Assembly (NCBI GenBank): GCA_016928015.1
Contig: JAFGLQ010000119.1
Location: 1-38,306 of the forward strand
Source of the DNA: Dehalococcoidaceae bacterium
Lineage (GTDB): Bacteria > Chloroflexota > Dehalococcoidia > Dehalococcoidales > CSSed11-197
Direction of reading: 5' to 3'
DNA: 38,306 nt
Positions 3,617-25,683 of the stretch are shown in pieces. Numbering within the stretch: position 1 is the stretch's first letter; the number at the start of each line of letters is the position of its first letter. Position numbers and translations under genes: made by a program. The notes under the pieces are model-generated. The model saw only the letters and a program-made list of their open reading frames with translations. It was not told the origin of the DNA and ran no database searches.

Positions 3617-3701
3617 TTGCCATGCCGGACTTTGCAAGTTGATGCTTTGTTGATACAAGAATATTATTGAATAAGAATAGAAAACGTAATTGGATTAATT
3701 C

Positions 3702-4772: not shown

Positions 4773-5599
4773 AAATAGTTGATGCCTTGAAAGAGTCCGA
4801 GCATCAATTAACGTTTACCCGCACCGACGCACCCCTGCTCGAAAGCGAAGTTTTATTACGCCATATTTTAAATATCAGCCGGGCTCAACTTTACATGTCG
4901 CTTCACGATGCTATTACCCAGCAGGACTGGCAATCGTTGCAGTGTATGGTAGAAAGACGATTAGCGGGAGAGCCGGTCGCATACATCATTTCTAAAAAAG
5001 AATTTTATAACCTCGAACTGTTTGTCGATAAAAGGGTGCTGATCCCAAGGCCTGAAACGGAAATACTGGTGGAAGAGGCGCTTAATATTGCACAAGGCAT
5101 TGAATCTCCGGTTATTTGTGACTTGGGCACGGGCAGCGGCGCCATTGCTATCGCGATTGCACATAACAACCCTGCAGCAGAACTGTTAGCCATAGACTCA
5201 AATCCTGAATGCCTTGATGTTGCCGCCATCAACATTCATGCCCTGGGTCTTGATGGCCGTATTATACTGTTGCACGGCAACCTGCTGGAGCCTCTTGAAA
5301 AAACAACTGATATTATTTGCGCCAACTTGCCTTATGTAAAGCATAGTGATATTGACAATAACACATTTGAACCGGTGAATTCCCTCGACGGTGGTATAAA
5401 CGGCCTGGACGTGATACAAATACTCATAAAGGATTACTACCGGTATTTAAATCCCGGCGGAAGATTGCTTATTGAAATCGGAGACGGACAGGAAGCAGCG
5501 GTCAAAACTTTTCTCGGCAGATATACTCCGTCAGTCGCAGTACTATCCCGGAGGGATTTGTCCGGCATAGTACGCATGATAATAGCCAGCCGTACTTAG
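4769..5599 (+). CDS. prmC: Release factor glutamine N5-methyltransferase
   Basis: [18 protein letters not shown] and ANLPY motifs; TTG start overlaps the prfA stop. Confidence 0.95.
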
Positions 5600-5612: not shown

Positions 5613-7685
5613 TTAATGCTGCTTGCTTTCTTCCTTGTCTGACTGGGCCTCTTCAGAAATCTTTTGAGCAATATGTGCCGGCACTTCTTCATAGTGGCTG
5701 AATTCCAGGCTGAATTTTCCCCGTCCCTGAGTTATTGACTTCAAATCAATCGCATACCTCTGGACTTCGGCCAGGGGCACCAGCGCTTCAACGATATTAA
5801 CGTCGCCTTCGGGTGTTATTCCATTCACTCTGGCCCGTTTTGTATTTAAATCTCCCACCACATCTCCAGTATGATCGCCGGGAATAACAGCTTTTAACGT
5901 CATAATGGGTTCCAGAAGAACCGGGCTGGCAGCGGCCATACCTTTCTTGAAAGCCTGGGAACCGGCGATTTTGAAACAGATTTCAGATGAGTCCACCGGG
6001 TGAAAGCTGCCGTCATATGCAGTAGCCCTCACGTCTACTACCGGACATCCGGCAATAACGCCTTCTTTGAGCGCCTCAAGGACGCCTTTTTCTACCGCCG
6101 GCAGGTAATTTTTAGGTATTGAGCCGCCGACTACGCGTGTGGCAAATTCATTGCCCGTACTACGGGGCAAAGGTTCTACTTCAAGCATTACATGCCCATA
6201 TTGACCGTGGCCGCCGGATTGTTTCTTATGTTTATGTTCAGCAGTTACCTTTTGTGTTACCGTTTCCTTATAAGGTACTTTTGGAGTTTTCAACTCAACG
6301 CCAACACCGAACTTGCGGTGCATTCTTTCGGCGGCTACATCCAGCTGTGTGTCGCCTGTACCGGAAAGAATAGTCTCTCCGGTATCAGGGTCGCGATGAA
6401 TGCGCATGGTCGGATCTTCCTCAACAATTCGGGCAATAGATGCTCCAAGTTTATCTACATCTTCTTTACTTTTGGGATAAACAGCCGCAGAATAAGACGG
6501 GTCGGGAAAAACGACCGGCTCAATTTTGACCTGACCGGCCTGTTCGCCCAGCGTATCTCCGGTGGCAGTAACAGCGAGTTTGGCTGTAGCCCCGATATCT
6601 CCAGCCGCAACCCGGGTTACGGTCTCCTGGCTTTTACCTCTCGGAACAAACAACTGGCCGATTCTTTCGAAAGCGCCCTGTTGTACGTTGTAAACCTGTG
6701 AATTACTTTCCATTGTCCCGGAATAGACCCTGAACATCGAAAGTTTGCCGACGTATGGATCAGCACTTGTTTTGAATACCAGTGCCGCCAGCGGACTTTC
6801 CTGTCCTGATTTTATATTCTTGACCATTGAATCTTCGGTGAGTTTTACTTCTTTTTCAAGGGGAGATGGCAGTAATGTCTTGATGGCCTGCATCAATGTT
6901 TTTACGCCGATGTTTGCCAGGCCGGAACCGCATAATACTGGATTTATATTTCCTGTTTTTACGGCATTGACCAGAGCAGAAATAATTTCGGCGTCTGATA
7001 TCTCTTCTCCTGCCAGGAATTTTTCTATCAGCGCATCGTCGGTTTCGGCTACAGCTTCTATCATGCGCTCACGATATTCGGCTGCTTTTGCTTTGAGCTC
7101 TTCAGGGATTGGCCCTTCGGTATCGTCGGGGCCTGTGTAGCCTTTTAAGCTGACAAGGTCGATTATCCCCTTGAAATCGGACTGGGAGCCTATGGGAATC
7201 TGTATGGGGAGGCACTTGATACCAAACTTGTCTTGAATTTCATCAACTACCTTAAAAAAGTCGGCATTTTCCCGTTCCATCTTGCTAACAAAAAACATAC
7301 GGCTGAGTTTCTGTTCTCCGGCAAGCTCCCAGGCAATTTCGGTTCCGGTTTTTACGCCTGAATTGGCGCCGATTACTATCAGAGCGCCTTCGCATACCCT
7401 TATCGCCGATTTAACCTCGCCTATGAAATCCGGGTAGCCCGGGCAATCAATCAGATTAATTTTGATATCGTTCCATTCACAAGGCAGAAGGGTGAGATTA
7501 ATGCTTAATTTTCTCTTGATTTCATCGGGGTCGAAATCCGACGTGGCGGTTCCGTTGTCAACTTTTCCCAGGCGGTTTACCGCACCGCTGTTGAATAAAA
7601 TGGCTTCGGAAAGCGTCGTCTTGCCTTCGGAGCCGTGTCCAATAAATACAACATTTCTGATGTTTTCAGCCTGGTACTGGTTCAT
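5613..7685 (-). CDS. fusA2: Elongation factor G paralogue (EF-G2 type)
   Basis: Full five-domain EF-G (KQSGGHGQYG, DGSFHPVDSSE) with a divergent G1 motif GHGSEGKTT; not in the rpsL-rpsG operon. Confidence 0.9.
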   Translation of the reverse strand: MNQYQAENIRNVVFIGHGSEGKTTLSEAILFNSGAVNRLGKVDNGTATSDFDPDEIKRKLSINLTLLPCEWNDIKINLIDCPGYPDFIGEVKSAIRVCEGALIVIGANSGVKTGTEIAWELAGEQKLSRMFFVSKMERENADFFKVVDEIQDKFGIKCLPIQIPIGSQSDFKGIIDLVSLKGYTGPDDTEGPIPEELKAKAAEYRERMIEAVAETDDALIEKFLAGEEISDAEIISALVNAVKTGNINPVLCGSGLANIGVKTLMQAIKTLLPSPLEKEVKLTEDSMVKNIKSGQESPLAALVFKTSADPYVGKLSMFRVYSGTMESNSQVYNVQQGAFERIGQLFVPRGKSQETVTRVAAGDIGATAKLAVTATGDTLGEQAGQVKIEPVVFPDPSYSAAVYPKSKEDVDKLGASIARIVEEDPTMRIHRDPDTGETILSGTGDTQLDVAAERMHRKFGVGVELKTPKVPYKETVTQKVTAEHKHKKQSGGHGQYGHVMLEVEPLPRSTGNEFATRVVGGSIPKNYLPAVEKGVLEALKEGVIAGCPVVDVRATAYDGSFHPVDSSEICFKIAGSQAFKKGMAAASPVLLEPIMTLKAVIPGDHTGDVVGDLNTKRARVNGITPEGDVNIVEALVPLAEVQRYAIDLKSITQGRGKFSLEFSHYEEVPAHIAQKISEEAQSDKEESKQH

Positions 7686-7766
7686 TTTGTCCGCCTTTCT
7701 ATTAAGGATTTATTTATCTGCTGCCCCTATTATAGATAATTTGAAAGTATCGGGACAAACTTCAAA

Positions 7767-8318
7767 CTAAAACAGACTTAATAACCCCGGTGTCACAAAC
7801 GTTTCTATGAATGCTGCCGGTATCAATAGAGCTATCGAAAGGGCAAGATATTTTAAGCTTGAAATTAGGGTTGGCAGTAACATTGCCCTGAGCTCCCGCT
7901 TGAAAATACTTAATGCCAGCGTTGTACCCAGGTAAATAGCGGCCGAAAGACCGATAATAAGGGCGGGGATTTCAAAAATCCCATGCGGTAAAAGCCCCGT
8001 GAGCAAAAAACCCAGTGATTCCTGCTCAATTACCATTGCGCTGACAACTCCAATCACAAATCCATTCAGCCCCAGGGCTAGCAAAGGTACAATGCCAAAC
8101 AGCGGAGACATGATAAAACTGAAAACGATAGCGATTATATTGTTAAATAAAATAATAAAAAATACGGCCGCAGGGCTCAACGATTCGAAATCCTCAAGAA
8201 ATTCACCAAGGGGAGCGATATCTTCAATAGACACATTTAGCGGAATAATGAATCCGGCAGCAACGGCAAATAACAAAATCAGGCTCGAAGCAGCCAGCCA
8301 TTTACGGTAACTTATCAT
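7767..8318 (-). CDS. SpoIIM/DUF95-family membrane protein
   Basis: IFFNN-like ILFNN, NG, LLPHGIFEIPA and AAFIETFVTP motifs; multiple hydrophobic segments. Confidence 0.85.
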   Translation of the reverse strand: MISYRKWLAASSLILLFAVAAGFIIPLNVSIEDIAPLGEFLEDFESLSPAAVFFIILFNNIIAIVFSFIMSPLFGIVPLLALGLNGFVIGVVSAMVIEQESLGFLLTGLLPHGIFEIPALIIGLSAAIYLGTTLALSIFKRELRAMLLPTLISSLKYLALSIALLIPAAFIETFVTPGLLSLF

Positions 8319-8869
8319 AGCGGGTAAGGTTCCCCGAAACGGTTTAAAAAGACCGTTGCTTCAAGCGGTTTTCTGGGAGTCGACCGGGGTTGTTCTGCCG
8401 GATAACCCAGCAGCAACAGCGCCACTGCCGCGTAATCTTGAGGCAGGCATATTTCGCGTGCTACCAAATTTGAATCGAAATAACCTATAATTACGGTACC
8501 AAGACCCAATTGGTGCGCGGCGAGCATCAGATTCTGGGCATACACGCCGGTATCGAACATAAACCATTCAGCCTTATCTGTAACGGGTGAAGAACCGGAA
8601 TACCCGGACAGGCCTTTTTCGGCACATATTACGAGTATAACCGGCGCTTCAAGCGCACCGTCATAGGATCGATTGCCTTTGAGAGCTTCAGCTATGCGTT
8701 TCTTTATTTCAGTATCCTCAACAATGACCACCCGGGCACACTGGCTGTTTTTCCATGAAGGTGCCCATCGGGCAGCTTCAAGTACTTGATACAGTTTCTC
8801 CGGCTCCACCTTAAATTGGCTATAGCGCCGAATAGCACGTCGCGAAGCTATTATCTGCAGTATATCCAT
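8315..8869 (-). CDS. Nitroreductase family protein
   Basis: RRAIRRY, EAARWAPSWKNSQ and QNLMLAAHQLGLGT motifs. Confidence 0.92.
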   Translation of the reverse strand: MDILQIIASRRAIRRYSQFKVEPEKLYQVLEAARWAPSWKNSQCARVVIVEDTEIKKRIAEALKGNRSYDGALEAPVILVICAEKGLSGYSGSSPVTDKAEWFMFDTGVYAQNLMLAAHQLGLGTVIIGYFDSNLVAREICLPQDYAAVALLLLGYPAEQPRSTPRKPLEATVFLNRFGEPYPL

Positions 8870-8875
8870 ACGGGT

Positions 8876-9535
8876 TTACGATTCCTCCCAAGCCTGGCGC
8901 CCGATCAATGAAACAAAACGGCATCCACCAAGGCTGTGCACCTCAATATCATCATGAGTCTTTGTCACTTTAAGCAATTCCTGCTGATGACGGCTGCCTG
9001 CTGGAATAACCATGCGTCCCCCTGTAACTAACTGGTCGAGCAAGGATTTGGGTATTTCGGGCGCTGCAGCCGCAACGAGTATGGCATCATACGGAGCATT
9101 TTTCTTCCAGCCGAGTTCTTCTTCTGCAATCCTGACATCAATGTTGTGATACCCGAGTGTTTTTAAAACCGATTTCGCCCTTGCCGCCATGTCGGGAAGC
9201 CTCTCTACTGTAATAACCTTGGCGGCAAGCTCGGCAAGTATTGCTGCCTGATAACCACTGCCCGTACCGATCTCCAGAACCTTTTCTTCGCCCTTGAGTT
9301 CAAGAGCAGTACTCATTAATGCAACTATATAAGGCTGTGAAATAGTCTGGCCTGAGCCTATTGGCAGCGGGGTATCTTCATAAGCCAGCGCTAATTTTTC
9401 AGGTGGCACAAAGTAGTGCCGCGGCACCTTTGATAAGGCATCCAGAACCCTGTTATCAAATATCCGGTTTCGCAGTTGAGAAACCATCTTTTTTCGTTCA
9501 ATATCATAACAGGACACTGGCTCCATATTGTTCAT
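8876..9535 (-). CDS. pcm: Protein-L-isoaspartate(D-aspartate) O-methyltransferase
   Basis: GQTISQPYIV, VLEIGTGSGYQAA, APYDAILV and CRFVSL motifs. Confidence 0.95.
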   Translation of the reverse strand: MNNMEPVSCYDIERKKMVSQLRNRIFDNRVLDALSKVPRHYFVPPEKLALAYEDTPLPIGSGQTISQPYIVALMSTALELKGEEKVLEIGTGSGYQAAILAELAAKVITVERLPDMAARAKSVLKTLGYHNIDVRIAEEELGWKKNAPYDAILVAAAAPEIPKSLLDQLVTGGRMVIPAGSRHQQELLKVTKTHDDIEVHSLGGCRFVSLIGRQAWEES

Positions 9536-9783
9536 AGAATATATGAAAGGATAATAAGCAGAACAAGCATGATGGCAAAAAGAAGGCCGATTCTCTTCAG
9601 TTCCGGTATTAGGGACCTGGAAACAAAAATATTTCCCGCCTGCTGTTCATTTGGCGGTGCATCAGCGATGCGATCACAGGCAATAGCGGGGTTTGTGCGG
9701 TCTGGCAAACCCGCCGTCTTGGGTGTAATTATTCTTACCGGAGTCCTTTTTGGTTTTCTAAATTTGTTGGCCTTTGAAGACAT
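9532..9783 (-). CDS. Small basic protein with a C-terminal transmembrane anchor (hypothetical)
   Basis: GAGG RBS; Lys/Arg-rich N-terminus and hydrophobic C-terminus (IGLLFAIMLVLLIILSYIL); stop overlaps the pcm start by 4 nt. Confidence 0.7.
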   Translation of the reverse strand: MSSKANKFRKPKRTPVRIITPKTAGLPDRTNPAIACDRIADAPPNEQQAGNIFVSRSLIPELKRIGLLFAIMLVLLIILSYIL

Positions 9784-9805
9784 TTAAATATACCTCAAGA
9801 AATTA

Positions 9806-10714
9806 TTATTTCGCCCGGGGATGGGAGCTGTTATATGCCCGGCGAATATGTTCGGAAGAAACATGGGTGTATATCTGTGTTGTAGAAATATTGGCATGCC
9901 CCAGCATTTCCTGTACTGCACGCAGGTCAGCTCCACCGCTCAGCATGTGTGTTGCGAAACTGTGGCGTAAAGTGTGAGGTGTTACCTTATTGCCCAAACC
10001 TGCGGCCTTGGCATAACCTTTCAGTATTTGCCAGAGTCCCTGGCGGGTCAATCGTTCTCCGCGCTGGTTCACAAACAGTGCTGGTTCATTATCACGGTGA
10101 ACCATCGCCGGCCTTGCATCCTTTATGTAAACTGCAACCGATTGGGCCGCCTGGGGATATATCGGGATAATTCTCTCCTTGCTGCCCTTCCCAAAACAGC
10201 GAATGGTGTTATTAGCTGTATCGATATCTTCCAGGTTAAGGGCAATCATTTCACTGACCCTCATGCCGCTGGCATACAGCAACTCAAGCATCGCACGGTC
10301 CCTTTTTGCTTCCGGCGCGCTGGATTTGGCTGGCTGGCTGATTAGTTCTCGTACTTCAGTTATGGTAATTGCATCAGGCAGCGACTTGCCAACTTTGGGA
10401 GAAGTAACTTTTTCAGCCGGGTTATCAGCCAGTTTGCCATCGGCAACCATAAAATTAAAAAAGCTCTTGGTAGCAGCTACTTTGCGAGCCAGAGTAGTAA
10501 CTGCATAACCTCTGCTTTTGAGTTCTACCATATAGCTGGCCAATCCGTGCTTGCCGAAATTTTGCCAGGAAGGTATAACGCTTCGATAGCGTGCATCGCG
10601 TTCAACGTATTCAACCATCTGCCCCAAATCGTTATTATACGCATCCAGGGTATTTTGAGAAAAGCCCCGTTCAACCTTGAGATAATTTAAGAAATGTTCG
10701 ATATCCTCTTTCAC
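9806..10714 (-). CDS. xerD: Site-specific tyrosine recombinase XerD
   Basis: ELLYASGMRVSE, GKGSKER, HTLRHSFATH, LGHANISTTQIY and C-terminal HPRA. The GTG at 10714 has a GAGGGTG RBS; the ORF track start is 10747. Confidence 0.93.
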   Translation of the reverse strand: MKEDIEHFLNYLKVERGFSQNTLDAYNNDLGQMVEYVERDARYRSVIPSWQNFGKHGLASYMVELKSRGYAVTTLARKVAATKSFFNFMVADGKLADNPAEKVTSPKVGKSLPDAITITEVRELISQPAKSSAPEAKRDRAMLELLYASGMRVSEMIALNLEDIDTANNTIRCFGKGSKERIIPIYPQAAQSVAVYIKDARPAMVHRDNEPALFVNQRGERLTRQGLWQILKGYAKAAGLGNKVTPHTLRHSFATHMLSGGADLRAVQEMLGHANISTTQIYTHVSSEHIRRAYNSSHPRAK

Positions 10715-10812
10715 ACGCTCACCCTCTTTGCAGCTAATGGATACCATATTAACATAACATGATTATATTTTAAACTGTTTCCTACCACTTGCAGGGCTTT
10801 CCAACCAATATA

Positions 10813-10841
10813 TTGACGTCGATGGAACGGTAGAGCATACT
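10813..10841 (+). promoter_or_regulatory. Putative sigma70 promoter TTGACG-N17-CATACT
   Basis: -35/-10 hexamers at 17-nt spacing in the divergent intergenic region upstream of the Ala-rich protein. Confidence 0.5.
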
Positions 10842-10914
10842 ATAACTTGAACCTATGCAGCGTCCCGGCAACCCTGTAATTATTGCCGCTGCTATGTGTT
10901 ACAGGAGAATGAGA

Positions 10915-11529
10915 ATGGTTGATAAGCAAGTAGAAGAAATATTCGAACCCGGTGAATCAGATAAACCACGCACCCGGATACTATCTGTGCCGCTGCCGCA
11001 GATACTGGATGAGATGGAAGCCAATATCAGGGCTGCAGCGGAAGCGGCTCGCAAAGCAGAAGCGGCGGCAAGAGATGCAGTTGGAGCCGCCAAATCTGCT
11101 ACACAGGCTTCCGAAGTCGCTACCCAGCGTGCCAGGGAAGCTCAGGATGCTGGTGAACAGGCAGCCGAAATTGCTACCCAGGCAGCCCGGGATGCAGCTG
11201 CTAAGGCTGAAGAGACTGCTAAAGCTGCCACCGGTGCGGCTGAAATGGCTGTCAAAAAAGCTGAGGAGGCAGACCGCGGCGCTCAAAAAGCCATACAGGC
11301 ACTTCAGGCGGCAACAGCCGAAGCCGCCGTAAAAGGCGAAGAGGTTAGAAAAGCCGGTGAACAAGCAGCTGCCAGAGCCATAAAAGCCGCCGAAGAGATT
11401 GCCGCTCTTGCAATGTATGCCATAAATTCTATAAATGAAGCCGCCAATAATACAGCCAGTTTATCCGAAGGGTTGAAAGAACGAGCCAGGGAAGCAGAAA
11501 ACAGGATAAAGGCCCTGGAGTCGATATAA
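10915..11529 (+). CDS. Alanine-rich coiled-coil protein (hypothetical)
   Basis: AGGAG RBS before ATGs at 10909/10915 (ORF track start 10855). Short head RILSVPLPQILDEMEANI, then about 165 aa of Pro-free Ala/Glu/Lys helix. Confidence 0.8.
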   Translation: MVDKQVEEIFEPGESDKPRTRILSVPLPQILDEMEANIRAAAEAARKAEAAARDAVGAAKSATQASEVATQRAREAQDAGEQAAEIATQAARDAAAKAEETAKAATGAAEMAVKKAEEADRGAQKAIQALQAATAEAAVKGEEVRKAGEQAAARAIKAAEEIAALAMYAINSINEAANNTASLSEGLKERAREAENRIKALESI

Positions 11530-11644
11530 ACTTTCCGGGTTATTGATTGACCTTGGTCGTGTATAAACCTCACGGGCAGTCGCTATTCAGTTGACGCATC
11601 CGTTAACTGGCGGCCAATCCGGCAATTTGCGGGATAATTTAAAG

Positions 11645-13471
11645 ATGATTGATACTCGAACCATATTTAAAGAGCGCGCTAAACGTTTCCCAATGTCTCC
11701 CGGCGTATATCTGATGAAAGACAGCGGGGCAAATATAATTTACGTGGGCAAAGCCAGTTGCTTGCGTAACCGTGTGGGCTCCTATTTTGTATTAACAGAA
11801 AGGTTAAATGCCAAAACCCGGCAGTTGGTCAGCCGGATAGCTGATATAGAGTACTTCGTCACCTCATCCGAAGAAGAAGCCCTGGTTCTGGAACTGAACT
11901 TCATTAAACAATACAGGCCCCATTTCAATATCGCCTTAAAAGACGATAAGAGCTACCCGTATATAAAAATTACCGTTAATGAAGAATGGCCCCGAGTGCT
12001 GGTCACTCGCAGGCTTGAAAACGATGGCTCCCGTTACTTCGGGCCGTACGGGAGTGCATTTTCTACCCGCCAAACTATTGGCACAATTAAGAAAATCTTC
12101 CCTTTCAGATCATGTAAAACAATCAGAAGCGGAGCAAACCGGCGCCCCTGCCTTGAATACGATATGAAGCAGTGCCCCGGTCCCTGCGCAGGGCGGGTGG
12201 ATGGAAATGAGTACAATAACACCATAAAAAGCCTGCTGATGTTTCTGGAGGGAAGACATGGTTCGGTTATTTCAAGGCTTGAATCCGAAATGAAAAAAGC
12301 TGCCACCGAATTGAATTATGAAAAGGCGACCGTAATCAGGGATCGAATAAATTATCTAAACCGTATCATTTCCTACCAGGAAATCACACAGCGTGTAAGC
12401 GGCACCAAAGACGCCATTGCTTTTGCCCGTGAAGATGAGGACGTTTTTGTACAGGTTTATTTTATCCGTGAAAGCAGAATAGTCGGCCGTGAAGGCTATT
12501 TCCTGAAAAACACCCGGCACGAAGAAAACACCAGTATCATGACCAGTTTTGTCAAGCAGTATTACAGTCATGCCGTAAATGTTCCTCCCGCGATATTGCT
12601 GCAGTATCCGATTGAAGACAAACCGGTTATAAAAAACTGGCTTCGCAGCAGGGCCGGTCACAACGTAAACATCCAGGTACCGGCAAAGGGCGCGAAAAAG
12701 GAATTAATTAAAACCGTTGCGTCAAACGCCACCCAGGGCTTGAAAGCCGGTAAGTTCAAAAACATCTCCAGTAAAACAGATGCCACCAGTCTGCTTGATG
12801 AACTCCGGCATTTATTGAACCTGCCGCAGTTGCCAGAACGCATCGAGGGGTATGATATATCCAACATACACGGACATGCAGCCGTAGGCAGCATGGTTGT
12901 GTTCGAAAATGCAACTCCGGCACCTTCTCAGTACCGCAGATTTAAAATTAATACTGTAAACCAGCCGGACGATTTTTCAATGCTTAAAGAGGTAATATCA
13001 AGACGGTTTGGTCAAAAATTCTTGAATTCTCCAACTGCCGGGTACCGCTTGCCTGACCTGATTTTGATAGATGGAGGCAAAGGTCAAGTTAGTTCCGTGG
13101 TAGAATCCATCAGCAGGGCAGGGCATTCTGAAATCAGTATTATTGGTTTAGCAAAAGAAAATGAACAGATATTCTTGCCGGGCGTGAGCCGCCCGGTTGC
13201 ACTTGATAGAACTTCACCCGTACTGCACTTACTTCAAAATATAAGAGATGAAGCCCACCGGTTTGCCCTTGGCTATCATAGAAAAATCCGCAGCAAACAA
13301 AGCTTTAAATCCAGATTGGATGATGTTGCCGGTATCGGGCCGAAAAGAAAACGCGCACTGTTGAATAAATTTGGTTCTCTGGCGGCTGTAATTAATGCAG
13401 ACGCTGATGAACTTACCGGTGTTAAAGGGATCACGCCTGAAATTGCCAGGCGGATCAAGGAAATCGTTTAG
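11645..13471 (+). CDS. uvrC: Excinuclease ABC subunit C
   Basis: GIY-YIG domain (PGVYLMKD...IYVGKA), RIEGYDISN, LILIDGGKGQ, RDEAHRFA and C-terminal HhH. Start is either ATG 11645 or TTG 11591. Confidence 0.96.
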   Translation: MIDTRTIFKERAKRFPMSPGVYLMKDSGANIIYVGKASCLRNRVGSYFVLTERLNAKTRQLVSRIADIEYFVTSSEEEALVLELNFIKQYRPHFNIALKDDKSYPYIKITVNEEWPRVLVTRRLENDGSRYFGPYGSAFSTRQTIGTIKKIFPFRSCKTIRSGANRRPCLEYDMKQCPGPCAGRVDGNEYNNTIKSLLMFLEGRHGSVISRLESEMKKAATELNYEKATVIRDRINYLNRIISYQEITQRVSGTKDAIAFAREDEDVFVQVYFIRESRIVGREGYFLKNTRHEENTSIMTSFVKQYYSHAVNVPPAILLQYPIEDKPVIKNWLRSRAGHNVNIQVPAKGAKKELIKTVASNATQGLKAGKFKNISSKTDATSLLDELRHLLNLPQLPERIEGYDISNIHGHAAVGSMVVFENATPAPSQYRRFKINTVNQPDDFSMLKEVISRRFGQKFLNSPTAGYRLPDLILIDGGKGQVSSVVESISRAGHSEISIIGLAKENEQIFLPGVSRPVALDRTSPVLHLLQNIRDEAHRFALGYHRKIRSKQSFKSRLDDVAGIGPKRKRALLNKFGSLAAVINADADELTGVKGITPEIARRIKEIV

Positions 13472-16335: not shown

Positions 16336-17436
16336 ATGAAGGTTACTCTAAGTGTTATCAAAGCAGACATCGGGGGTTGGGTCGGCCACAGTGACTCTCA
16401 CCCCGAAGTACTGGCCAAGGCCGAAGAGATGATGGCCAGGGCAAAAAAGGAAGGTACTCTTATTGACTATCATGTTACCAAGTGCGGTGACGATGCCCAG
16501 CTGATAATGACTCATAACCATGGCGAAGAAAATGAACTGATTCACAAACTTTCCTGGGATACCTTTCTTGCCTGCACCGAAGTCGCCAAAAAATTGAAGC
16601 TGCATGGTGCCGGACAGGATCTGCTCAGCGATGCTTTTTCCGGCAACGTCAAAGGTATGGGCCCTGGAGTTGCCGAATGTGAAATTGAAGAGCGCGGCGC
16701 CGAAAGCATTATAATATTCATGGCTGATAAAACTTCATCCGGTGCCTGGAACTTACCTCTGTATAAGATATTTGCCGACCCTTTCAATACCATCGGGCTG
16801 GTAATCGCCGGCAATATGCATACCGGGTTTGCTTTTGAAGTCCATGATGTTAAGGAACACAAGAAAGTAACCTTCAATTGTCCTGAAGAAATATATGACC
16901 TTCTGGTCTTTATCGGTGCTCCGTCAAGATTTTGCATAAAATCGGTATATCATCGTGATTCTGGCGAGATCGCCGCAGTTTCATCGACGCAAAAACTTTC
17001 CTTGATGGCTGGCCGGTATGTCGGCAAAGACGACCCGGTTTGTATAGTCAGAGCCCAGGGCCATTTTCCTGCCGTCGGAGAGGTACTGGAACCGTTTGCT
17101 CACCCGTTCTATGTCGAAGGCTGGATGAGGGGTTCGCACATGGGTCCCCTGATGCCGGTATCGGTTCCTGATGCTACACCATCCCGTTTCGATGGCCCGC
17201 CGCGGGTTACTTCTCTGGGCTTCCAGCTGGCCGGAGGAAAACTGATTGGGCCTAAGGATATGTTCGATGATATTTCTTTTGAAAATGCTCGTGCAGAGGC
17301 CAACTTGATGGCCGACATTATGCGTCAACACGGGCCCTTTGAACCTCACCGCCTGCCTCTTGACGAAATGGAATACACTACCATGCCGCAGGTAGTTGAC
17401 AAGCTGAAAGACAGGTTCGAGATACTGGAGGATTAG
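16336..17436 (+). CDS. fbp: Bifunctional fructose-1,6-bisphosphate aldolase/phosphatase (class V)
   Basis: KVTLSVIKADIGG, GAGQDLL, GNVKGMGPG, FADPFNT, YVGKDDP, GWMRGSH and FEPHRLP motifs; GGAGG RBS. Confidence 0.96.
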   Translation: MKVTLSVIKADIGGWVGHSDSHPEVLAKAEEMMARAKKEGTLIDYHVTKCGDDAQLIMTHNHGEENELIHKLSWDTFLACTEVAKKLKLHGAGQDLLSDAFSGNVKGMGPGVAECEIEERGAESIIIFMADKTSSGAWNLPLYKIFADPFNTIGLVIAGNMHTGFAFEVHDVKEHKKVTFNCPEEIYDLLVFIGAPSRFCIKSVYHRDSGEIAAVSSTQKLSLMAGRYVGKDDPVCIVRAQGHFPAVGEVLEPFAHPFYVEGWMRGSHMGPLMPVSVPDATPSRFDGPPRVTSLGFQLAGGKLIGPKDMFDDISFENARAEANLMADIMRQHGPFEPHRLPLDEMEYTTMPQVVDKLKDRFEILED

Positions 17437-18129: not shown

Positions 18130-19284
18130 ATGAAGCTATCTTGCCTTCAGGAAAATTTGAATAAAGGGCTAAATCTCGTTGGCAGAGCAGCTGCAGCCCG
18201 TACTACTTTGCCGATTACCAATAACGTTCTTCTGTCGACTGATGGAGGCAGGCTGAAGCTGGTTGCTACCAATCTTGAAATGGCCATAAGTTGCTGGATT
18301 GGCGCCAAAGTTGACGAAGAAGGCGCCATTACCATTCCTGCCAGAATCTTGAGTGAATTCGTAGCATCTCTGCCTAATGATAAAGTCGAAATGACACTCT
18401 CATCCAAAACACGGGTACTCGAAATGAAATGCGCCCGTTTCGAAGCCAGGATGAGCGGCGTTGACGCCAAGGATTTTCCTCCCATCCCCCATATAGATGA
18501 TGGTATAAGCACTACCGTCGAAGCCCTCGAGTTAAAACGCGGTATTCGTAAAGTGGCTTTTGCCGCGGCTGTGGATGATTCCAGGCCTGTTCTTACCGGA
18601 GTCAATGCAGAATTTGATGATCAGACACTAACACTCGCCGCAGCGGACGGTTTTCGTTTGGCAGTATACAAAATGCCTCTGGCAACCAGAGTTAGCCAAA
18701 AAATTACCGCCATCATACCGTCACGCACACTTTTTGAGCTTCAAAAACTTTCAGCAGATCAGGAAGGGCCCATTACAATCGTACTTAATCCCTCCCGCAG
18801 CCAGATCATATTCCGCCTCAAAGATATTGAGCTTGTTTCTCAGCTTATACAGGGAACATTCCCCCAGTATTCCCAGTTAATCCCCCAAAGTTACGGTACC
18901 AGAGTTGTAGCCAATGTAAAACAACTCTCCCAGGCAAACAAGACTGCTTCCATTTTCGCGCGTGACGGCAGCGGAATCGTCCGCCTGGTAGTGACTCCCG
19001 GTGAAAGCGAAGTGACTCCCGGCAAAATGACCGTGTCTGCTCGGGCCGAAGAACTTGGTGAAGACACCGGCGACATTGATGTTACCGTACAAGGGGATGA
19101 GTCGAAGATTGCGTTCAATACACGCTACTTGAAAGAAGTGCTGGAAGCCATTTCCGAAGCCCAGTCCGATGCCGAAAAACAGGTAGCGCTTGAGATTACC
19201 AATCCTTCGAGCCCCGGCGTGTTCAAACCCATAGACGAAGACAACTATTTGCATGTGATTATGCCTATGTTCGTCAGTTGGTAA
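18130..19284 (+). CDS. dnaN: DNA polymerase III beta sliding clamp
   Basis: ATNLE, RPVLTG, ADGFRLA, GTFPQY, AFNTRY and VIMPM motifs; GAGGTG RBS; TTGAGC-N18-TATACT upstream. Confidence 0.96.
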   Translation: MKLSCLQENLNKGLNLVGRAAAARTTLPITNNVLLSTDGGRLKLVATNLEMAISCWIGAKVDEEGAITIPARILSEFVASLPNDKVEMTLSSKTRVLEMKCARFEARMSGVDAKDFPPIPHIDDGISTTVEALELKRGIRKVAFAAAVDDSRPVLTGVNAEFDDQTLTLAAADGFRLAVYKMPLATRVSQKITAIIPSRTLFELQKLSADQEGPITIVLNPSRSQIIFRLKDIELVSQLIQGTFPQYSQLIPQSYGTRVVANVKQLSQANKTASIFARDGSGIVRLVVTPGESEVTPGKMTVSARAEELGEDTGDIDVTVQGDESKIAFNTRYLKEVLEAISEAQSDAEKQVALEITNPSSPGVFKPIDEDNYLHVIMPMFVSW

Positions 19285-20816: not shown

Positions 20817-22553
20817 CTATTGCTCTTTTTTCCAGACGGAAGCTTTGAGTGATAATTCCCTGGCTACATCAAGAGATTTCTCTGAATACTGCCTGGGAGA
20901 TATCATGGCAGCCAGCTCTTCAATACGTTCGTTGTCATTTAGAGCCCTGATTGTACTGGTATTACGGTTACCCCGGGATGTTTTGCAGACCTTGAAATGT
21001 GAATCGGCGAACGCTGCAATCTGTGGCAAATGAGTAATGCATATTATCTGGTGGTGCCGTCCTAGAGACCACAGCTTCCTGCCGATTACCTCCCCGCTCC
21101 TTCCGCCGACACCTATATCAATTTCATCGAATATCATCGTCGGTACCGCATCCGCTCCTGCCAGCGCGTTTTTTAAAGCCAGTGTAAATCGGGATATCTC
21201 TCCAGTAGAGGCAATATTCGCAATAGGCATAACCGGTTCTCCCGGATTGGTTGAGGCAAAAAATTCTACGTTGTCAATACCGTCCTTACCAAATTTGTAT
21301 TCCTTGCCCGATAGGGCCAGGCCGCCTGTTTCTTCGGTATGCTCAATGCAAACTTTGAATACGACTTCGGGCATGTTAAGGCCGGCAAGCTCATCCTCCA
21401 TCTTGTGTTCAAGCTCCCGGGCCGCATTGAGTCTTAAAGACGTTAATTGTTGCGCTAAATCCGCCATTTTGAACATCAGTTCCCTGATTTCGTTGTCCAG
21501 TTTATCCAGATTCGATGCAATGTTGCCGATATCTTCGAGTTCCTGACGAATACTCTTTTGCTGGAGCAGCAAACTGTCCATACTGCCGCCGTATTTACGC
21601 TTCAAGCGCCCTATCAACTCCAGCCGGTTGCCCAGTTCTTCGATGCGTTCCGGGCTGCCATCCAATTCTTCCACGTAGCGGCGTACTTCATAACCCAGTT
21701 CTTCTGTTTTATCGCAGGTCTCCTGTAATAATTCGAACTGAGCGGTTAACCGCGGGTCTATCTCGGCCAGGCGGGAAAACAACCCCAGCGCTTGAGAAAG
21801 GCAGTCAAAGGCGGAAGACTGCTCCGATGTATAATCCCCTCTCAAAGACTGGTAAATATCCCAGGAAAGCCTTTTTACGGTCTCTATATTGGTCAGCTTA
21901 ATTAACTCTTTTTCTATTTCAGCGTCTTCTCCGGGTTTAATGCCAGCTTTTTCAAGTTCATCCATCTGAAAATAAAGATAATCTCTACGTTTGGCAATAT
22001 CATTGTTAGCCGTTTGCAAGCGAGCTCTTTCATGAAGTAAATGCTGAATTTGCGAATACAGCTGGCTGTAAGCATCCCTTATTTCGGCCGTGCAGCCAAA
22101 TTTGTCCAGCAGTCTCAAATGAGTCGACCTGTCATACAAAGACAGGTGCTGAGTCTGGCCATGTATATCCAGAAGAAGGCCCCCGACATGTTCAAGCAAT
22201 TTCTTGGGGACCGGAGTTGAGTTGATGCGAAAAATATTGCGCCCGTTCTTTTTCAGATGGGCAGTAATAACAATGTCGTTTGAGCCGGAATGCAATTTTC
22301 TCTCTTCGAGAAATTCAAGTAAACCCTGGGGTGAACATACGTCTAAGTTGAAATACGCTTCGACTCTGGCCTCTTCACTACCATGCCGGATAACTGAATC
22401 ACCTGGAGACTCAAAAAATAGAATCTCCAATGCCTCGATAATGAGCGATTTCCCGGAACCCGTTTCACCGGATATTATGTTAAGTCCATGGTCAATATCC
22501 CAGGTAAGGTCGTCAATTATTCCCAGTGAAATAATCCGTATTTCTTTCAGCAT
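20817..22553 (-). CDS. recN: DNA repair protein RecN
   Basis: GETGSGKS Walker A, DIHGQ, central coiled coil, ASTGEISR, FDEIDIGVGG and ITHLPQIAA motifs. Confidence 0.95.
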   Translation of the reverse strand: MLKEIRIISLGIIDDLTWDIDHGLNIISGETGSGKSLIIEALEILFFESPGDSVIRHGSEEARVEAYFNLDVCSPQGLLEFLEERKLHSGSNDIVITAHLKKNGRNIFRINSTPVPKKLLEHVGGLLLDIHGQTQHLSLYDRSTHLRLLDKFGCTAEIRDAYSQLYSQIQHLLHERARLQTANNDIAKRRDYLYFQMDELEKAGIKPGEDAEIEKELIKLTNIETVKRLSWDIYQSLRGDYTSEQSSAFDCLSQALGLFSRLAEIDPRLTAQFELLQETCDKTEELGYEVRRYVEELDGSPERIEELGNRLELIGRLKRKYGGSMDSLLLQQKSIRQELEDIGNIASNLDKLDNEIRELMFKMADLAQQLTSLRLNAARELEHKMEDELAGLNMPEVVFKVCIEHTEETGGLALSGKEYKFGKDGIDNVEFFASTNPGEPVMPIANIASTGEISRFTLALKNALAGADAVPTMIFDEIDIGVGGRSGEVIGRKLWSLGRHHQIICITHLPQIAAFADSHFKVCKTSRGNRNTSTIRALNDNERIEELAAMISPRQYSEKSLDVARELSLKASVWKKEQ

Positions 22554-22627
22554 ACTTCTTGCCCAATATAGTATTATATTTATACCCGTGTTGAAAAGGC
22601 CACTGCAATGACGTTATCTTTTTAAGT

Positions 22628-22656
22628 TTGACTTAAAAGCCAATAGTCATTAAACT
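22628..22656 (+). promoter_or_regulatory. Putative sigma70 promoter TTGACT-N17-TAAACT for the tubulin-family gene
   Basis: Hexamers at 17-nt spacing in the divergent recN/tubulin intergenic region. Confidence 0.5.
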
Positions 22657-22731
22657 TTTAGTGACTTTTCTCAAATTTAAACACACCATCTTGACACCAA
22701 TTATTTTATCCCGAATAAAGGGAGGAGCGAA

Positions 22732-23910
22732 GTGAAATTATTAGTTGTAGGTTGCGGGCAGGCCGGAGGCCGCATTTCTGACGAATTCGCCCTGCTTAAC
22801 AAAAAAGCGCGTGCCGAACGCGGTTTCGATATCATGACAAACATTCTTGCGGTAAACACCGACGTTGCCGATTTGAGTGGATTGTGCCACATAAAAGCCG
22901 ATTTTCATCATCGTATTCTGATCGGCAGCGGCAAGACTCACGGCCATGGTGTCGGCAAAATGAACGAAATAGGCGCTGCCATCGCCCGTGAAGATGGCGA
23001 TAAAGTTCTGGACAAAATAAGAGATACCAAGAACCTTCCCGAAACAGACGCTTTCATGGTTGTAGGCAGCGCTGCCGGGGGTACTGGTTCCGGATCCGTG
23101 CCCGTAATAACTCAGATTATTAAAGAACATTTTCCCGAAAAACCTGTATATAATCTGATTGCCTTGCCGTTCAAGTTCGAAGAAGTGACGGAGGAGCGTT
23201 CGGTTTACAACGTGGGCACGTGCCTTAAATCCGCTTACCTGGTCGCCGATGCTATATTCCTTGTTGACAACCAGCGTTATATCACCAAAAACGCTTCCAT
23301 GCGCCAGAATCTGGCCAAGATAAACCATGACATAGTCAAACCTTTTTACAACCTGTTATGCGCCGGCGAAGAAACCGATGTGAAATACATCGGTTCCAAG
23401 GTGGTTGACGGGGGTGATATTATCCAGACTCTTTCCGGATGGACAACCATTGGTTACGGCAGAACTAAAACTTCCGTAATGAAACTGCCTTTCAATAAGT
23501 CGGTCGATTTCCGAAGCAAAAATACTGAAGCCATGCCCGGAACCCAGGCTATGAACGAAGCACTGGGCGAACTGTCACTGAAATGTGAACCCAATGATGC
23601 CCGTAAAGCTCTCTATATCATTAATGCTCCGCCTGATGTTATGAGCATGGACCTCATCAAGGACCTTTCTGCCGCTTTGAGAGAAATGGCCCCGCAGGCG
23701 ATTATCCGCAGTGGCGACTACCCGAGAGGCAAAGGTTCGGTCGATGTGACAATTTTACTTTCAGAACTGGTCAACTCTCGTAAGGTTATGAGTTACTTTA
23801 CGAAAACCATCAGCTATATGTCTCACATACGCACTGAAAGAGGCTATATCGAAGAGCAGGAAAGGGGCCTTGCCGGCGCTTTCCAGGATATTCCATCCCT
23901 TCTTTCATAA
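22732..23910 (+). CDS. Tubulin/FtsZ-superfamily GTPase, CetZ-like
   Basis: T1 loop GCGQAGG, AVNTD..DL, RILIG..KTHGHGVG, signature GGTGSG, LVDN and T7 region VVDGGDIIQTL; GGAGG RBS with GTG start. Confidence 0.9.
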   Translation: MKLLVVGCGQAGGRISDEFALLNKKARAERGFDIMTNILAVNTDVADLSGLCHIKADFHHRILIGSGKTHGHGVGKMNEIGAAIAREDGDKVLDKIRDTKNLPETDAFMVVGSAAGGTGSGSVPVITQIIKEHFPEKPVYNLIALPFKFEEVTEERSVYNVGTCLKSAYLVADAIFLVDNQRYITKNASMRQNLAKINHDIVKPFYNLLCAGEETDVKYIGSKVVDGGDIIQTLSGWTTIGYGRTKTSVMKLPFNKSVDFRSKNTEAMPGTQAMNEALGELSLKCEPNDARKALYIINAPPDVMSMDLIKDLSAALREMAPQAIIRSGDYPRGKGSVDVTILLSELVNSRKVMSYFTKTISYMSHIRTERGYIEEQERGLAGAFQDIPSLLS

Positions 23911-23914
23911 ACAT

Positions 23915-23950
23915 AATAATAGAGCGGGTCGGTCGACCCGCTCTATTATT
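23915..23950. terminator. Bidirectional intrinsic terminator between the convergent genes
   Basis: Perfect 17-bp inverted repeat AATAATAGAGCGGGTCG-GT-CGACCCGCTCTATTATT with A/T-rich ends on both sides. Confidence 0.85.
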
Positions 23951-23964
23951 TTTCACCTTTTGGG

Positions 23965-25683
23965 TTATTCGTCGTCTGTGTCAGTTTTTCTGGTTGCTCC
24001 ATGCTGTTCAAGCTCGCTGAACATCTGCTCCAGTTCTTCCAGTCTGGATTTCTTCATTTCCTGCGTTTCAACCGGTATCTCATTTGAAGGTAGCGTGTTC
24101 TCTTCTTTCACGGGTTCGTAAATTTCATCGAATTCCTCGGTATTTACCGGTTCCGGGCGTTCTGTCGATATCTGGCTTTTAGTGGCGGTATCGATTTTCT
24201 GTATTTTTGGAGCTTGCTTTTCTATTTTTTTCAAATCGCGCTTCAGTTCCCTGGAAACCTGCCCTGCCACCTTGTTTATTTCGCCCGTGCCGCTGATCAT
24301 TCTTTCTATAATAGGCAGGGACATTCCAACGGCTTCCTGCAAAGCCAGCCTGGCGGCATTGATGGCATCTTCAGCTGTTTGCACGGCTTGCCGGGCTGCT
24401 ATTTCCGCTTCCTGCGACAAGCTGGTTGCATTTTCAAGCGCATTCTGTGATTGCCGGAGAGCGGCAGTGGCCTCCTTCCGGGCTTTTTCGGCAGTTTCTT
24501 CGGCGCGGGAAATGGGCAACCGGGACGATTTTACCCAGCCTTGTATATCATCAACTGCTTTCGAGCTTATTTGCTGAGCTTTTTCTATTGCCTTCTGAGA
24601 AGAGGTTATTGCCTGGTCTGCGGTGTGTTTAGCCACGTTACCGAGGTCAATTGCCTTATTCGAACTGTTCAGCGCATCTTGTTTGGCCTGTTCTACCGAT
24701 AGTTCTGCCTGACGGATAGTGTCTTCAATATTAGCAATCGCCTCTTTAATCATAACAACAGCCTGGTTGGCGTTTTCACTGGCCTGCTGGCTGCTTTGTT
24801 CTACGCGAAAAATAGATTGCTTTGAAAGCTTGAGCGCTTCATCGGCCGTGTTCTTGGCCCACTGGCTGGAATCATTGGCCATTTTTATTGCCTTTTCAAA
24901 GTTACTGGAATAACCCGCGGCAGTTTCCTGGGCAATGGCTGCGGCTCTTTCAGCCCTTTTTACGGCATCCTCGCTCAATCTGGCTGAAGCGTCGGCTACC
25001 TTCCTGGATGCACGGCTTACTTCATCAGCCCTTAAAATGGCTTCATTGGAAATCCGGGCGGCTTCAGTAGCCGATTCCCGGGTGGTTTTTCCCATTTCTT
25101 CTACCTTTTCGATTGCCTGCTGTCCCAGCAGAACTGCGTTTTGAGCTTCACTTTTAGCCTCGTTTGACATTCTTTCGGCGCTTCTGAGGGTTTCCTGGGA
25201 TTGTTTTACTGTTGCTTTAATTTCATCCAGCGTTTCCCTGGCAATTTTTTCTATGCGGGCAACTGTATCTTCAAAGGAGCGTGAAAGTTCTTTTGAAGCC
25301 TTTGTAGAGTTTTCCACGCTTTCTTCGGCATTTCTGGCAGCATGTTTGAATGCAGCTTCAGCTTCTTCGGCTCGCGCTTTGGCCTGGCTGTAATCTTCTG
25401 CTGCCTTGGATACGGCTTCTTCTGCCTTTAATACAGCTTCCTCAGCGCGGCGTACCGCATTTTCAGAAGCTCTTTTCGCTTCGGATGAATCTCTTTGCGC
25501 TTGTTTTACAATTTCCTTTGCGTTATTAAGCGCTTCCTTGCTTACTTTTATAGATTCTTTGGCCTCTTCTTTTGACTGGTTGGATAGATTCACAGCCTCT
25601 GTAATCTCTTTTCTTAAAGCTTCAGTTTCTTTTTCCATGCTTTTAAGGTCTCCTGCAGTAAAATTATGGCTGTTATTATTCAA
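23965..25683 (-). CDS. Long Ala/Glu/Ser-rich coiled-coil protein with 25-aa repeats (hypothetical)
   Basis: 572-aa ORF, AGGAG RBS and TTG start; no TM or signal peptide visible; almost Pro-free helix for about 490 aa, then an acidic tail. Confidence 0.85.
   Translation of the reverse strand: MNNNSHNFTAGDLKSMEKETEALRKEITEAVNLSNQSKEEAKESIKVSKEALNNAKEIVKQAQRDSSEAKRASENAVRRAEEAVLKAEEAVSKAAEDYSQAKARAEEAEAAFKHAARNAEESVENSTKASKELSRSFEDTVARIEKIARETLDEIKATVKQSQETLRSAERMSNEAKSEAQNAVLLGQQAIEKVEEMGKTTRESATEAARISNEAILRADEVSRASRKVADASARLSEDAVKRAERAAAIAQETAAGYSSNFEKAIKMANDSSQWAKNTADEALKLSKQSIFRVEQSSQQASENANQAVVMIKEAIANIEDTIRQAELSVEQAKQDALNSSNKAIDLGNVAKHTADQAITSSQKAIEKAQQISSKAVDDIQGWVKSSRLPISRAEETAEKARKEATAALRQSQNALENATSLSQEAEIAARQAVQTAEDAINAARLALQEAVGMSLPIIERMISGTGEINKVAGQVSRELKRDLKKIEKQAPKIQKIDTATKSQISTERPEPVNTEEFDEIYEPVKEENTLPSNEIPVETQEMKKSRLEELEQMFSELEQHGATRKTDTDDE

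Follow-up and report, generated by a model that had tools for sequence, protein, structure and literature searches.

A CetZ-type tubulin-superfamily gene near-universal in the Dehalococcoidales and its possible role in shaping wall-less bacterial cells

We analyzed a 38,306-nt stretch of DNA from a Dehalococcoidaceae bacterium (contig JAFGLQ010000119.1 of assembly GCA_016928015.1; the whole stretch is called the window below), in which the plus-strand gene at 22732..23910, stop codon included, encodes a CetZ-like GTPase of the tubulin/FtsZ superfamily with 392 amino acids (aa). The gene is the sole long open reading frame (ORF) at these coordinates, begins with GTG and is preceded by a strong Shine-Dalgarno-like sequence, GGGAGGAG (22720..22727, plus strand), read from the sequence 4 nt upstream of the start codon. 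Its product comprises an N-terminal GTPase domain (Pfam PF00091, residues 3-183; 22738..23280, plus strand) and a CetZ_C domain (Pfam PF21011, residues 189-354; 23296..23793, plus strand) that contains the GDYP motif located by alignment. The translation and alignments further reveal, all on the plus strand, the T1 loop GCGQAGG (residues 7-13; 22750-22770), the segment HRILIGSGKTHGHGVGK (residues 60-76), the T4 loop GGTGSG (residues 116-121; 23077-23094) and the T7 region VVDGGDIIQTL (residues 224-234; 23401-23433). A long M-loop on the same strand was recognized by alignment (~23461-23547), and the translation ends in the C-terminal peptide DIPSLLS (23887..23907, plus strand), part of the tail FQDIPSLLS at residues 384-392. 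A preliminary description of this DNA had proposed that the gene encodes an archaeal CetZ-like protein that shapes, rather than divides, a wall-less bacterium. The ORF and all of the motifs quoted there are present in the translation, and the protein start MKLLVVG, compared with MKLAMIG in CetZ1, bears out the reported lack of an N-terminal extension.

Downstream, the CetZ-like gene converges on a minus-strand gene (23965..25683) for a protein of 572 aa that is rich in Ala, Glu, Ser and Lys and has a helical-repeat, coiled-coil-like character. Between the two convergent genes lies a perfect palindromic hairpin of 16 bp (23915..23950, both strands), likely a two-way terminator: its folding energy is -27.9 kcal/mol (z -7.7), none of 200 shuffles was as stable, and a U-rich run follows. 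The terminator of the preliminary description holds up; the promoter that it also assigned to the gene stays a mere candidate, the five sigma-70-like sites found being no excess over the 3.1 +/- 1.8 obtained in shuffles. An Rfam scan of positions 22300-24200 gave no match.

Sequence comparisons assign the window gene to the CetZ type of the tubulin/FtsZ superfamily and separate it from the FtsZ and TubZ types. The protein matches Pfam Tubulin (PF00091) with 101.7 bits (cut-off 33, E 7.9e-29) and CetZ_C (PF21011) with 71.8 bits (cut-off 21.6, E 6.3e-20), the latter score exceeding the 57.9 bits of the CetZ of a cultured Thermococcus (P0253); across 14 control genomes, CetZ_C found a match in Haloferax only. 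The superfamily signature [SAG]GGTG[SA]G is satisfied by GGTGSG. In contrast, the NCBIfam ftsZ equivalog model TIGR00065 was matched at about 58-62 bits, far below its cut-off of 295.2, and VVDGGDII stands in place of the T7 sequence NxDFAD of canonical FtsZ. The TubZ family Tubulin_2 (PF13809) reached 24.5 bits, short of its cut-off of 27, over residues 106-139 only.

Searches against PDB gave the same assignment. With the single sequence, the best hits were 4b46 (E 4.7e-42, residues 1-356) and 4b45 (5.7e-32), followed by FtsZ (7.5e-11 at best) and TubZ (4e-6). A profile of 47 orthologs aligned over most of its length with 4b46 (6e-63), 4b45 (1e-46) and 3zid (2.5e-24, the alignment stopping near residue 307), the last of which we take to be a Methanosaeta CetZ, and with only the N-domain of FtsZ (3e-13), gamma-tubulin (2e-9) and TubZ (2.6e-8). 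The first two structures are H. volcanii CetZ1 (4B46) and CetZ2 (4B45) according to the consulted part of Brown & Duggin (2023, PMC9856176). The T1 loop GQAGG, the T3 loop GHGVG, the AGE following H7 and the GDYP of the C-domain are common to CetZ1 and CetZ2 and have no FtsZ counterpart, in a motif list that was drawn from our alignment and is not a published definition. Since the match to CetZ1 is full-length, the CetZ-type fold predicted for the window protein is not in doubt.

The reading frame is intact, and the alignment shows conservation of every GTP-binding loop and of the T7 catalytic aspartates. Residues G7, G9, Q10, G12, GHGV, GGTGSG, P146/F147/E150, N180, D226 and D229 are invariant in the 47 sequences, which comprise orthologs of the window gene and of one paralog described below (C37/C76-type) plus the genome's own paralogs; D229 aligns with the second Asp of FtsZ NLDFAD. 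Because the GTP-binding loops and the T7 aspartates are invariant, we infer that the CetZ-like protein is an active, polymerizing GTPase.

The contig is bacterial in content, in agreement with the host domain given in the preliminary description. It carries prfA, prmC, fusA, xerD, uvrC, dnaN (18130-19284, assigned by NCBIfam/Pfam scan) and recN (20817-22553, assigned by family scan), the last of which is divergent from the CetZ-like gene; downstream follow a lipoamide-dehydrogenase-like gene and an opp operon. The GC content of the window is typical, with no anomaly at the CetZ-like gene. None of the 34 window ORFs scanned is ftsA or another gene of the division and cell wall (dcw) cluster, as already noted in the preliminary description. 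A further plus-strand gene of the window (16336-17436) encodes a bifunctional fructose-1,6-bisphosphate aldolase/phosphatase (NF041126, 579 bits compared to a cut-off of 520).

The assembly (1.61 Mb, 120 contigs, 91.9% complete) contains six genes of the tubulin superfamily, of which two are canonical ftsZ, scoring 415 and 403 bits with the ftsZ model, and four are CetZ-like, with 35-54% mutual identity. One ftsZ belongs to a minimal mraZ-rsmH-ftsA-ftsZ cluster (contig C20, ftsA-ftsZ at 2641-5047) and the other to a second ftsA-ftsZ pair (contig C114, ~9492-11884; 6493-8882 of locus L110), so that the window gene is not the only FtsZ homolog of the genome. Two complete ftsA-ftsZ pairs thus occur within one 1.6-Mb genome. 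Two FtsA matches were likewise found in all seven genomes of the genus (the second copy being partial in two) and in 6 of the 24 genomes searched from the remainder of the order, and the second FtsZ ends in EVPSFQRL compared with DVPSFLRK in the other copy.

The window gene (on contig C37 in our numbering) has three CetZ-like paralogs, which answers the question of further copies raised in the preliminary description: C76 lies between gap and dnaX-ybaB-recR, C43 between moaA and nuoA, and C66 after genes for a GAF-histidine kinase and a LuxR-type regulator. C66 is the most divergent of the four and sits directly 3' of the GAF/HisKA_3 kinase and the LuxR-type response regulator on the same strand (C66 17289-19402; L108 5289-7402). 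None of the four is near ftsA or ftsZ, and the CetZ-like gene is therefore genetically apart from the ftsA-ftsZ division genes. Searches of this 91.9%-complete genome gave no match for SepF, FtsW/RodA or a penicillin-binding protein (PBP) transpeptidase and no match over the cut-off for MreB, and detected one Mur-ligase domain only. These absences, which accord with the wall-less lineage of the preliminary description, agree with the loss of dcw and peptidoglycan genes and retention of mraZ-mraW-ftsA-ftsZ reported for Dehalococcoidales and SAR202 in the consulted part of PMC10608941.

The phylogenetic position of the family was assessed in two trees, one built from 99 rows with FastTree and one from 72 rows with IQ-TREE in quick mode (LG+C20 with posterior mean site frequencies). 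For the second, fragments and redundant and long-branch rows of the 99 were dropped, and seven Haloferax denitrificans proteins (two FtsZ, five CetZ) were added. In the IQ-TREE tree, bacterial and Haloferax FtsZ proteins were split from everything else with a support of 100, and the window protein accordingly falls outside FtsZ. All 31 Dehalococcoidia-type rows, including the four paralogs of this genome, formed one clade, also with a support of 100. Within it, the closed genomes G009 and G136 are both represented in each of the C37, C76 and C43 groups, and the Dehalococcoides genome G015 is represented in C37 and C76 alone. A separate, largely archaeal clade (support 80), in which many rows are unlabeled, holds the CetZ proteins of Haloferax. 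When the tree is rooted on FtsZ, Thermococcus P0253 is the earliest branch, with the bacterial clade inside (Shimodaira-Hasegawa-like approximate likelihood ratios of 87 and 90, not starred); the Thermococcales CetZ are treated as the family boundary in the consulted part of Brown & Duggin (2023, PMC9856176). However, the alternative that holds together all 37 other rows (the archaeal, unlabeled and type-B non-FtsZ rows outside the bacterial clade) stands in the approximately unbiased (AU) test, with a delta lnL of 11.5 and p 0.125. The bacterial clade is thus CetZ-type, and both a position inside archaeal CetZ, which would point to acquisition from archaea, and a position as sister to archaeal CetZ are compatible with the trees. 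For the word "archaeal" in the preliminary description, this means that the CetZ type and the nesting among archaeal proteins are recovered, but a sister position fits as well.

Two further kinds of CetZ came up in these comparisons. A shorter one (type B, ~350-370 aa) occurs in some other families of the Dehalococcoidia (loci L111-L115; genomes G170, G150, G070, G051, and G049), starts with MRVGxIGxGQAGGRIADL, is without the IPSLL tail and matches CetZ_C at E 1e-30 to 1e-38. It clusters with proteins labeled Nitrososphaerales archaeon (support 98-99) and may represent a separate inter-domain transfer; at L115, two type-B genes in tandem accompany one Dehalococcoidales-type gene. The other is a deep branch of the bacterial clade, typified by P0143 (loci L249-L306), with proteins of ~418-480 aa that end in ..LPNL or ..LPDL, from genomes of 2.6-5.1 Mb labeled Dehalococcoidia/SAR202. 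In most of the 25 loci listed for it, a different gene of ~270-320 aa lies downstream on the same strand. This P0143 type was not caught by the class sample of 201 genomes described below.

The CetZ-like gene is vertically inherited and near-universal in the Dehalococcoidales, with several orthologous groups per genome. Of the 41 genomes of the order, this one included, 38 (32 of 35 genera) have CetZ_C matches, at one to four copies each. In a sample of the class, 37 of 201 genomes had a match, and in a sample of the phylum 25 of 301 did; these 25 are all members of that same class, and a count from the family tally gave none in the 266 phylum-sample genomes outside it. A broader profile of the bacterial clade recovered the same set (36 of the 201 class genomes). 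Orthologs are present in closed genomes of 1.4-1.9 Mb and in cultured Dehalococcoides. A look-up of sequencing runs listed no RNA data set containing the sequence, and the one strong DNA match may be the source sample. Close named homologs are annotated as "tubulin/FtsZ family protein" or "cell division protein FtsZ" in metagenome-assembled genomes (MAGs) of Dehalococcoidia, Dehalococcoidales or Chloroflexota, and 76 of the 79 best related loci in species-representative genomes (L027-L105) carry Dehalococcoid- or Chloroflexota-type labels. The odd labels comprise one Bathyarchaeota protein (P0103) and three loci assigned to Gemmatimonadales, Syntrophaceae and Chloroflexia (L074, L085 and L090). 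These homologs are 59-63% identical and lie on short contigs, except that L090, the Chloroflexia-labeled one, is a 2.0-Mb contig; the labels are probably binning or labeling errors.

The presence of CetZ_C is complementary to that of the FtsW/RodA family. Among the 201 class genomes, CetZ_C was found in none of the 88 that have FtsW/RodA and in 37 of the 113 that lack it (Fisher p = 4e-11, a value that is overstated since related genomes are not independent). FtsW/RodA was also missing from all five P0143-type genomes inspected (labeled Dehalococcoidia/SAR202, 2.6-5.1 Mb), which had been picked for carrying this deep-branching member of the bacterial clade.

The C-terminal peptide is strongly conserved. 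The 79 related loci contain 88 CetZ-like ORFs, and all but one of these (87) terminate in x-[ILV]-P-x-L, with the consensus K-D-I-P-S-L-L at the extreme C-terminus, and the exception is a 501-aa ORF that reads through (L077, 748-2250) and is without the tail motif. Several matches elsewhere (G053:C5:43710-44819 and the type-B genes of G051, G049 and G070) contain a single in-frame TGA or TAG; these and the read-through ORF may be pseudogenes, sequencing errors or artifacts of the match-window start. The preliminary description had called the tail amphipathic; its FQDIPSLLS is present, but the feature is better termed a conserved terminal peptide motif. It closely resembles the end of FtsZ in the same lineage, where the consensus is E-[DE]-E-L-D-[VI]-P-S-F-L-R-R (23 of 26 strict, with the variants MPSFLRR, VPSFLRY and VPSFMRY): KDIPSLL equals the FtsZ peptide LD[VI]PSFL at five of six core positions, and MAFFT pairs the two tails. 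FtsA binds the C-terminal peptide of FtsZ, and the FtsA-binding peptide of the FtsZ type is a terminal D-[IV]-P-x-F-L after a flexible linker. An ftsA gene was found in 30 of the 31 relatives, and its product terminates in an amphipathic helix.

The second conserved element is the convergent neighbor. Homologs of the 572-aa helical-repeat protein were found in the 4-kb flank of 65 of the 79 related loci by tblastn and of 66 by phmmer, nearly always downstream and convergent. When recN, dnaN, DUF2177, the lipoamide-dehydrogenase-like gene and oppA were considered as conserved neighbors, they had to be discarded, recN being found at 2 of the 79 loci and the rest at none. The neighbor family shares the C-terminal motif [ST]RL[ED]xLxxM[FY] followed by an acidic tail (SRLEELEQMF in the window copy), and its matches are thus not merely compositional. 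It has no Pfam or NCBIfam family, with sub-threshold matches to ApoLp-III and Phasin_2 only and a PDB match to 1eq1 at E 0.008. A protein homolog search with the neighbor returned nothing at E <= 1e-8, which is probably a low-complexity effect and no evidence of rarity. The neighbor stands beside 31 of 32 C37-type and 35 of 55 C76-type ORFs, the latter count leading us to reject a link limited to the orthologous group of the window gene. In the three closed or near-closed genomes it accompanies the C37-type gene each time and none of the five other-type genes. According to the consulted part of Santana-Molina et al. (2023, PMC9871819), the contexts of archaeal CetZ-like and tubulin-like genes often contain coiled-coil genes, so the theme of a coiled-coil neighbor is not new.

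Two related observations concern other helical proteins. A family of ~160-190 aa with AEqQA/ReeA-type repeats (52 ORFs, loci L039-L105) is often encoded between the CetZ-like and helical-repeat genes; it has no Pfam family and no homolog in this genome. In addition, the neighbor-family profile matches a 224-aa ORF of the window (10855-11529, plus strand), which has no NCBIfam family, and an ORF near the start of contig C70, with E-values of 5.5e-14 and 7.4e-43, both of which carry a large composition-bias correction.

Our preferred interpretation, which we put forward tentatively and with somewhat less than even confidence, is that the CetZ-like protein would polymerize with GTP into membrane-associated filaments, which would organize the envelope and give shape to a cell lacking peptidoglycan, MreB, PBPs and the SEDS (shape, elongation, division and sporulation) proteins FtsW and RodA. 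Its role would resemble that of haloarchaeal CetZ1 and not that of a division ring. Two weaker steps are attached to it. The terminal KDIPSLL may dock the filament to a partner, most likely FtsA, because the peptide nearly copies the FtsZ peptide of the lineage and FtsA is the only recognized FtsZ-tail receptor and membrane anchor in the genome; that FtsA is widespread and is known to bind FtsZ tails adds to the proposal. The convergent helical-repeat protein may serve as a cofactor or adaptor. A shape role rather than a division role is plausible on this comparative evidence, and it gains some support from the FtsW/RodA complementarity, the absence of MreB and the separate divisome.

Several observations weigh against this interpretation or parts of it. 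Three genomes of the order (95%, 89% and 63% complete) have no CetZ_C match, the association with FtsW/RodA loss lacks phylogenetic independence, and among the 113 FtsW-less genomes 76 are without CetZ_C, which counts against the CetZ-like protein being necessary in wall-less cells. The Haloferax CetZ tails ELESLF, LDSLF, IEPLF and LDDLL show the same hydrophobic pattern, making the tail an old family trait, and in the SAR202-type P0143 branch the tail is reduced to [IL]-P-[DN]-L, yet FtsZ still ends in LDVPSFLRR, so the two peptides do not co-vary. The helical-repeat neighbor is missing from all 58 P0143-type loci considered, from 20 of 55 C76-type ORFs and from the three other paralogs of this genome, and its convergent orientation means that it is not co-transcribed with the CetZ-like gene.

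The best surviving alternative, possible although we regard it as doubtful, makes the protein an accessory of the divisome: FtsA would recruit CetZ-like filaments by their FtsZ-like tail, and these would help constriction without septal peptidoglycan synthesis, as in wall-less archaea with more than one FtsZ. The tail core DIPSLL, so similar to DVPSFL of FtsZ, fits this proposal, as do the near-universal FtsA of the order and the failure to find a SEDS protein or PBP in the genome. If the FtsZ-annotated D. mccartyi genes DET0589 and DET0636 are CetZ-like, their link to growth-related transcripts (PMC5102406) would fit as well. It is harder to reconcile with four paralogs that are all located away from ftsA and ftsZ in a genome that already has two canonical FtsZ proteins. 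Moreover, CetZ1, the closest characterized relative, is dispensable for division and, as far as the sources consulted describe it, acts in shape and motility, not in division.

A second alternative, somewhat unlikely in our estimate, retains the cytoskeletal role and places the tail at the adjoining subunit or the membrane, as proposed for CetZ1, instead of at FtsA; the likeness to FtsZ would then reflect a tail ancestry shared across the tubulin superfamily. In the consulted part of a CetZ1 study (bioRxiv 10.1101/2024.04.08.588506), the LESLF tail is essential for rod formation and is suggested or predicted to touch the adjacent subunit, and CetZ1 alone binds liposomes. The h-x-x-L-h pattern of archaeal CetZ tails and the lack of FtsZ covariation in the SAR202-type branch point in the same direction. 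Against it stands the match of five of six core positions to the FtsZ of the same lineage, which includes the Pro and Ser that are mostly missing from the five H. denitrificans CetZ tails.

We reject, as very improbable, a TubZ-like filament for DNA or plasmid segregation. Membership in the tubulin superfamily, the weak Tubulin_2 score and the TubZ matches in PDB could suggest it, but that score is sub-threshold, the TubZ matches cover the N-domain only, and the gene is chromosomal, amid housekeeping genes and near-universal in the order; Pfam/NCBIfam scans, although no search was aimed at a TubR-type partner, found no DNA-binding family in the two adjacent genes. Finally, an archaeal contaminant in the MAG, or the remains of a recently transferred gene now in decay, to which only the few oddly labeled close homologs (one Bathyarchaeota protein and three loci) could point, is refuted for practical purposes by the dnaN, recN, uvrC, xerD and prfA genes and typical GC content of the contig, the intact frame with invariant catalytic residues, and the orthologs in closed genomes and cultured Dehalococcoides.

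If the preferred reading of a CetZ1-like filament is extended to its origin, a more speculative scenario emerges, to which we assign a low probability. The ancestors of Dehalococcoidales and SAR202-type Dehalococcoidia, on losing peptidoglycan, SEDS/PBP proteins and MreB, may have come to rely on a multi-paralog CetZ cytoskeleton of archaeal origin; the tail of the Dehalococcoidales proteins would have come to imitate the C-terminal peptide of FtsZ, allowing FtsA to anchor the two systems alike to the membrane, and the amphipathic helical-repeat neighbor, as a dedicated partner, would complete the machinery of shape control.

The existence of a CetZ-like homolog in Dehalococcoidia is not a discovery, being already known by annotation and from one comparative paper, and the novelty assumed by the preliminary description is correspondingly lower. 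A protein 100% identical to the Dehalococcoides ortholog of G015 is named "MULTISPECIES: tubulin/FtsZ family protein [Dehalococcoides]", and the UniRef name is "Tubulin-like protein CetZ". The consulted part of Santana-Molina et al. (2023, PMC9871819) mentions CetZ-like proteins of Chloroflexota-Dehalococcoidia in about one sentence, as "sparse paraphyletic groups", and the CetZ C-terminal model of these authors matches Dehalococcoidia proteins at ~1e-10. In contrast to that wording, the proteins were found here to be near-universal in the order (38 of 41 genomes) and to form one clade. In D. mccartyi, DET0589 and DET0636 are annotated as FtsZ besides DET0343 and are linked to growth-related transcripts, according to the consulted part of PMC5102406. 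Our literature search on a CetZ or tubulin cytoskeleton in Chloroflexota/Dehalococcoidia, on the transfer of CetZ to bacteria and on these two DET genes found no experimental study of these bacterial proteins. Taken together, the interpretation given in the preliminary description is partly supported. The new leads are the spread through 38 of 41 genomes, the FtsW/RodA complementarity, the FtsZ-like tail and the conserved helical-repeat neighbor, of which the tail and the putative partner are the most useful, although the tail lead has real counter-evidence.

CetZ is called archaea-specific in the consulted parts of two reviews (PMC9856176, PMC11621097), a criterion of distribution and not of molecular character that the bacterial host of the window gene contradicts. 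An entire, environmentally important order of wall-less bacteria with S-layers, among them the cultured Dehalococcoides, nevertheless combines a minimal FtsA-FtsZ divisome with one to four genes of the CetZ type. Should these proteins determine cell shape, they would reveal by what means a bacterium can control its form when it has neither peptidoglycan nor MreB, and would provide a bacterial counterpart for learning how CetZ filaments function and which partners bind their tails. If they are also of archaeal origin, archaeal-style morphogenesis would be operating inside a bacterium, in organisms that can be cultivated. Three leads are testable: the strict FtsW/RodA complementarity, the near-FtsZ tail and the conserved helical-repeat neighbor.

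Among known systems, TubZ and BtubA/B are likewise non-division filaments of the tubulin superfamily encoded in bacteria, with similarity to the window protein in the N-domain only (E 1e-6 to 1e-8). TubZ is encoded on plasmids or phages and acts together with TubR, whereas the window gene is chromosomal; BtubA/B are true tubulins confined to Prosthecobacter, according to the consulted part of PMC9871819. Bacterial FtsZ, including the two copies of this genome, shares the fold and GTPase loops, the aligned T7 aspartates and the tail core D-[IV]-P-S-[FL]-L. It differs in its 22% identity, a GGGG-type T1 loop, GGGTGTG, NLDFAD, the lack of CetZ_C and its location next to ftsA. The Thermococcales CetZ (P0253) is likewise a deep CetZ-type lineage with Tubulin and CetZ_C domains, and one member of its UniRef cluster, from T. 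radiotolerans, is named "Tubulin-like protein CetZ". Unlike the window protein, it has a GKGVN T3 loop, a long basic tail and, as given in the consulted part of PMC9856176, a short M-loop.

Haloferax CetZ1, represented by the H. denitrificans ortholog, matches the window protein with 33% identity across 389 residues (E 3e-45). The two have in common GQAGG, GHGVG, AGE, GDYP, CetZ_C, a short hydrophobic C-terminal peptide and several paralogs per genome, and the M-loop of the window protein is long as in CetZ1 and unlike CetZ2 (PMC9856176, consulted part). In T7, the window protein has DGGD where CetZ1 has DSSE (D for E), and it differs from both CetZ1 and CetZ2 by insertions of two and three residues. 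The window system is further set apart from Haloferax CetZ by its bacterial host, by the Pro-Ser in the tail as in bacterial FtsZ, and by the presence of FtsA but no SepF. The closest system is that of Dehalococcoides: the ortholog of G015 is 60% identical to the window protein, has the same domains and belongs to the same orthologous group. Its tail reads GSIPSLLD compared with the order consensus KDIPSLL, with the IPSLL core in common, and it has the same convergent helical-repeat neighbor. There is no essential difference between the two, the window copy coming from an uncultured genus of the same order.

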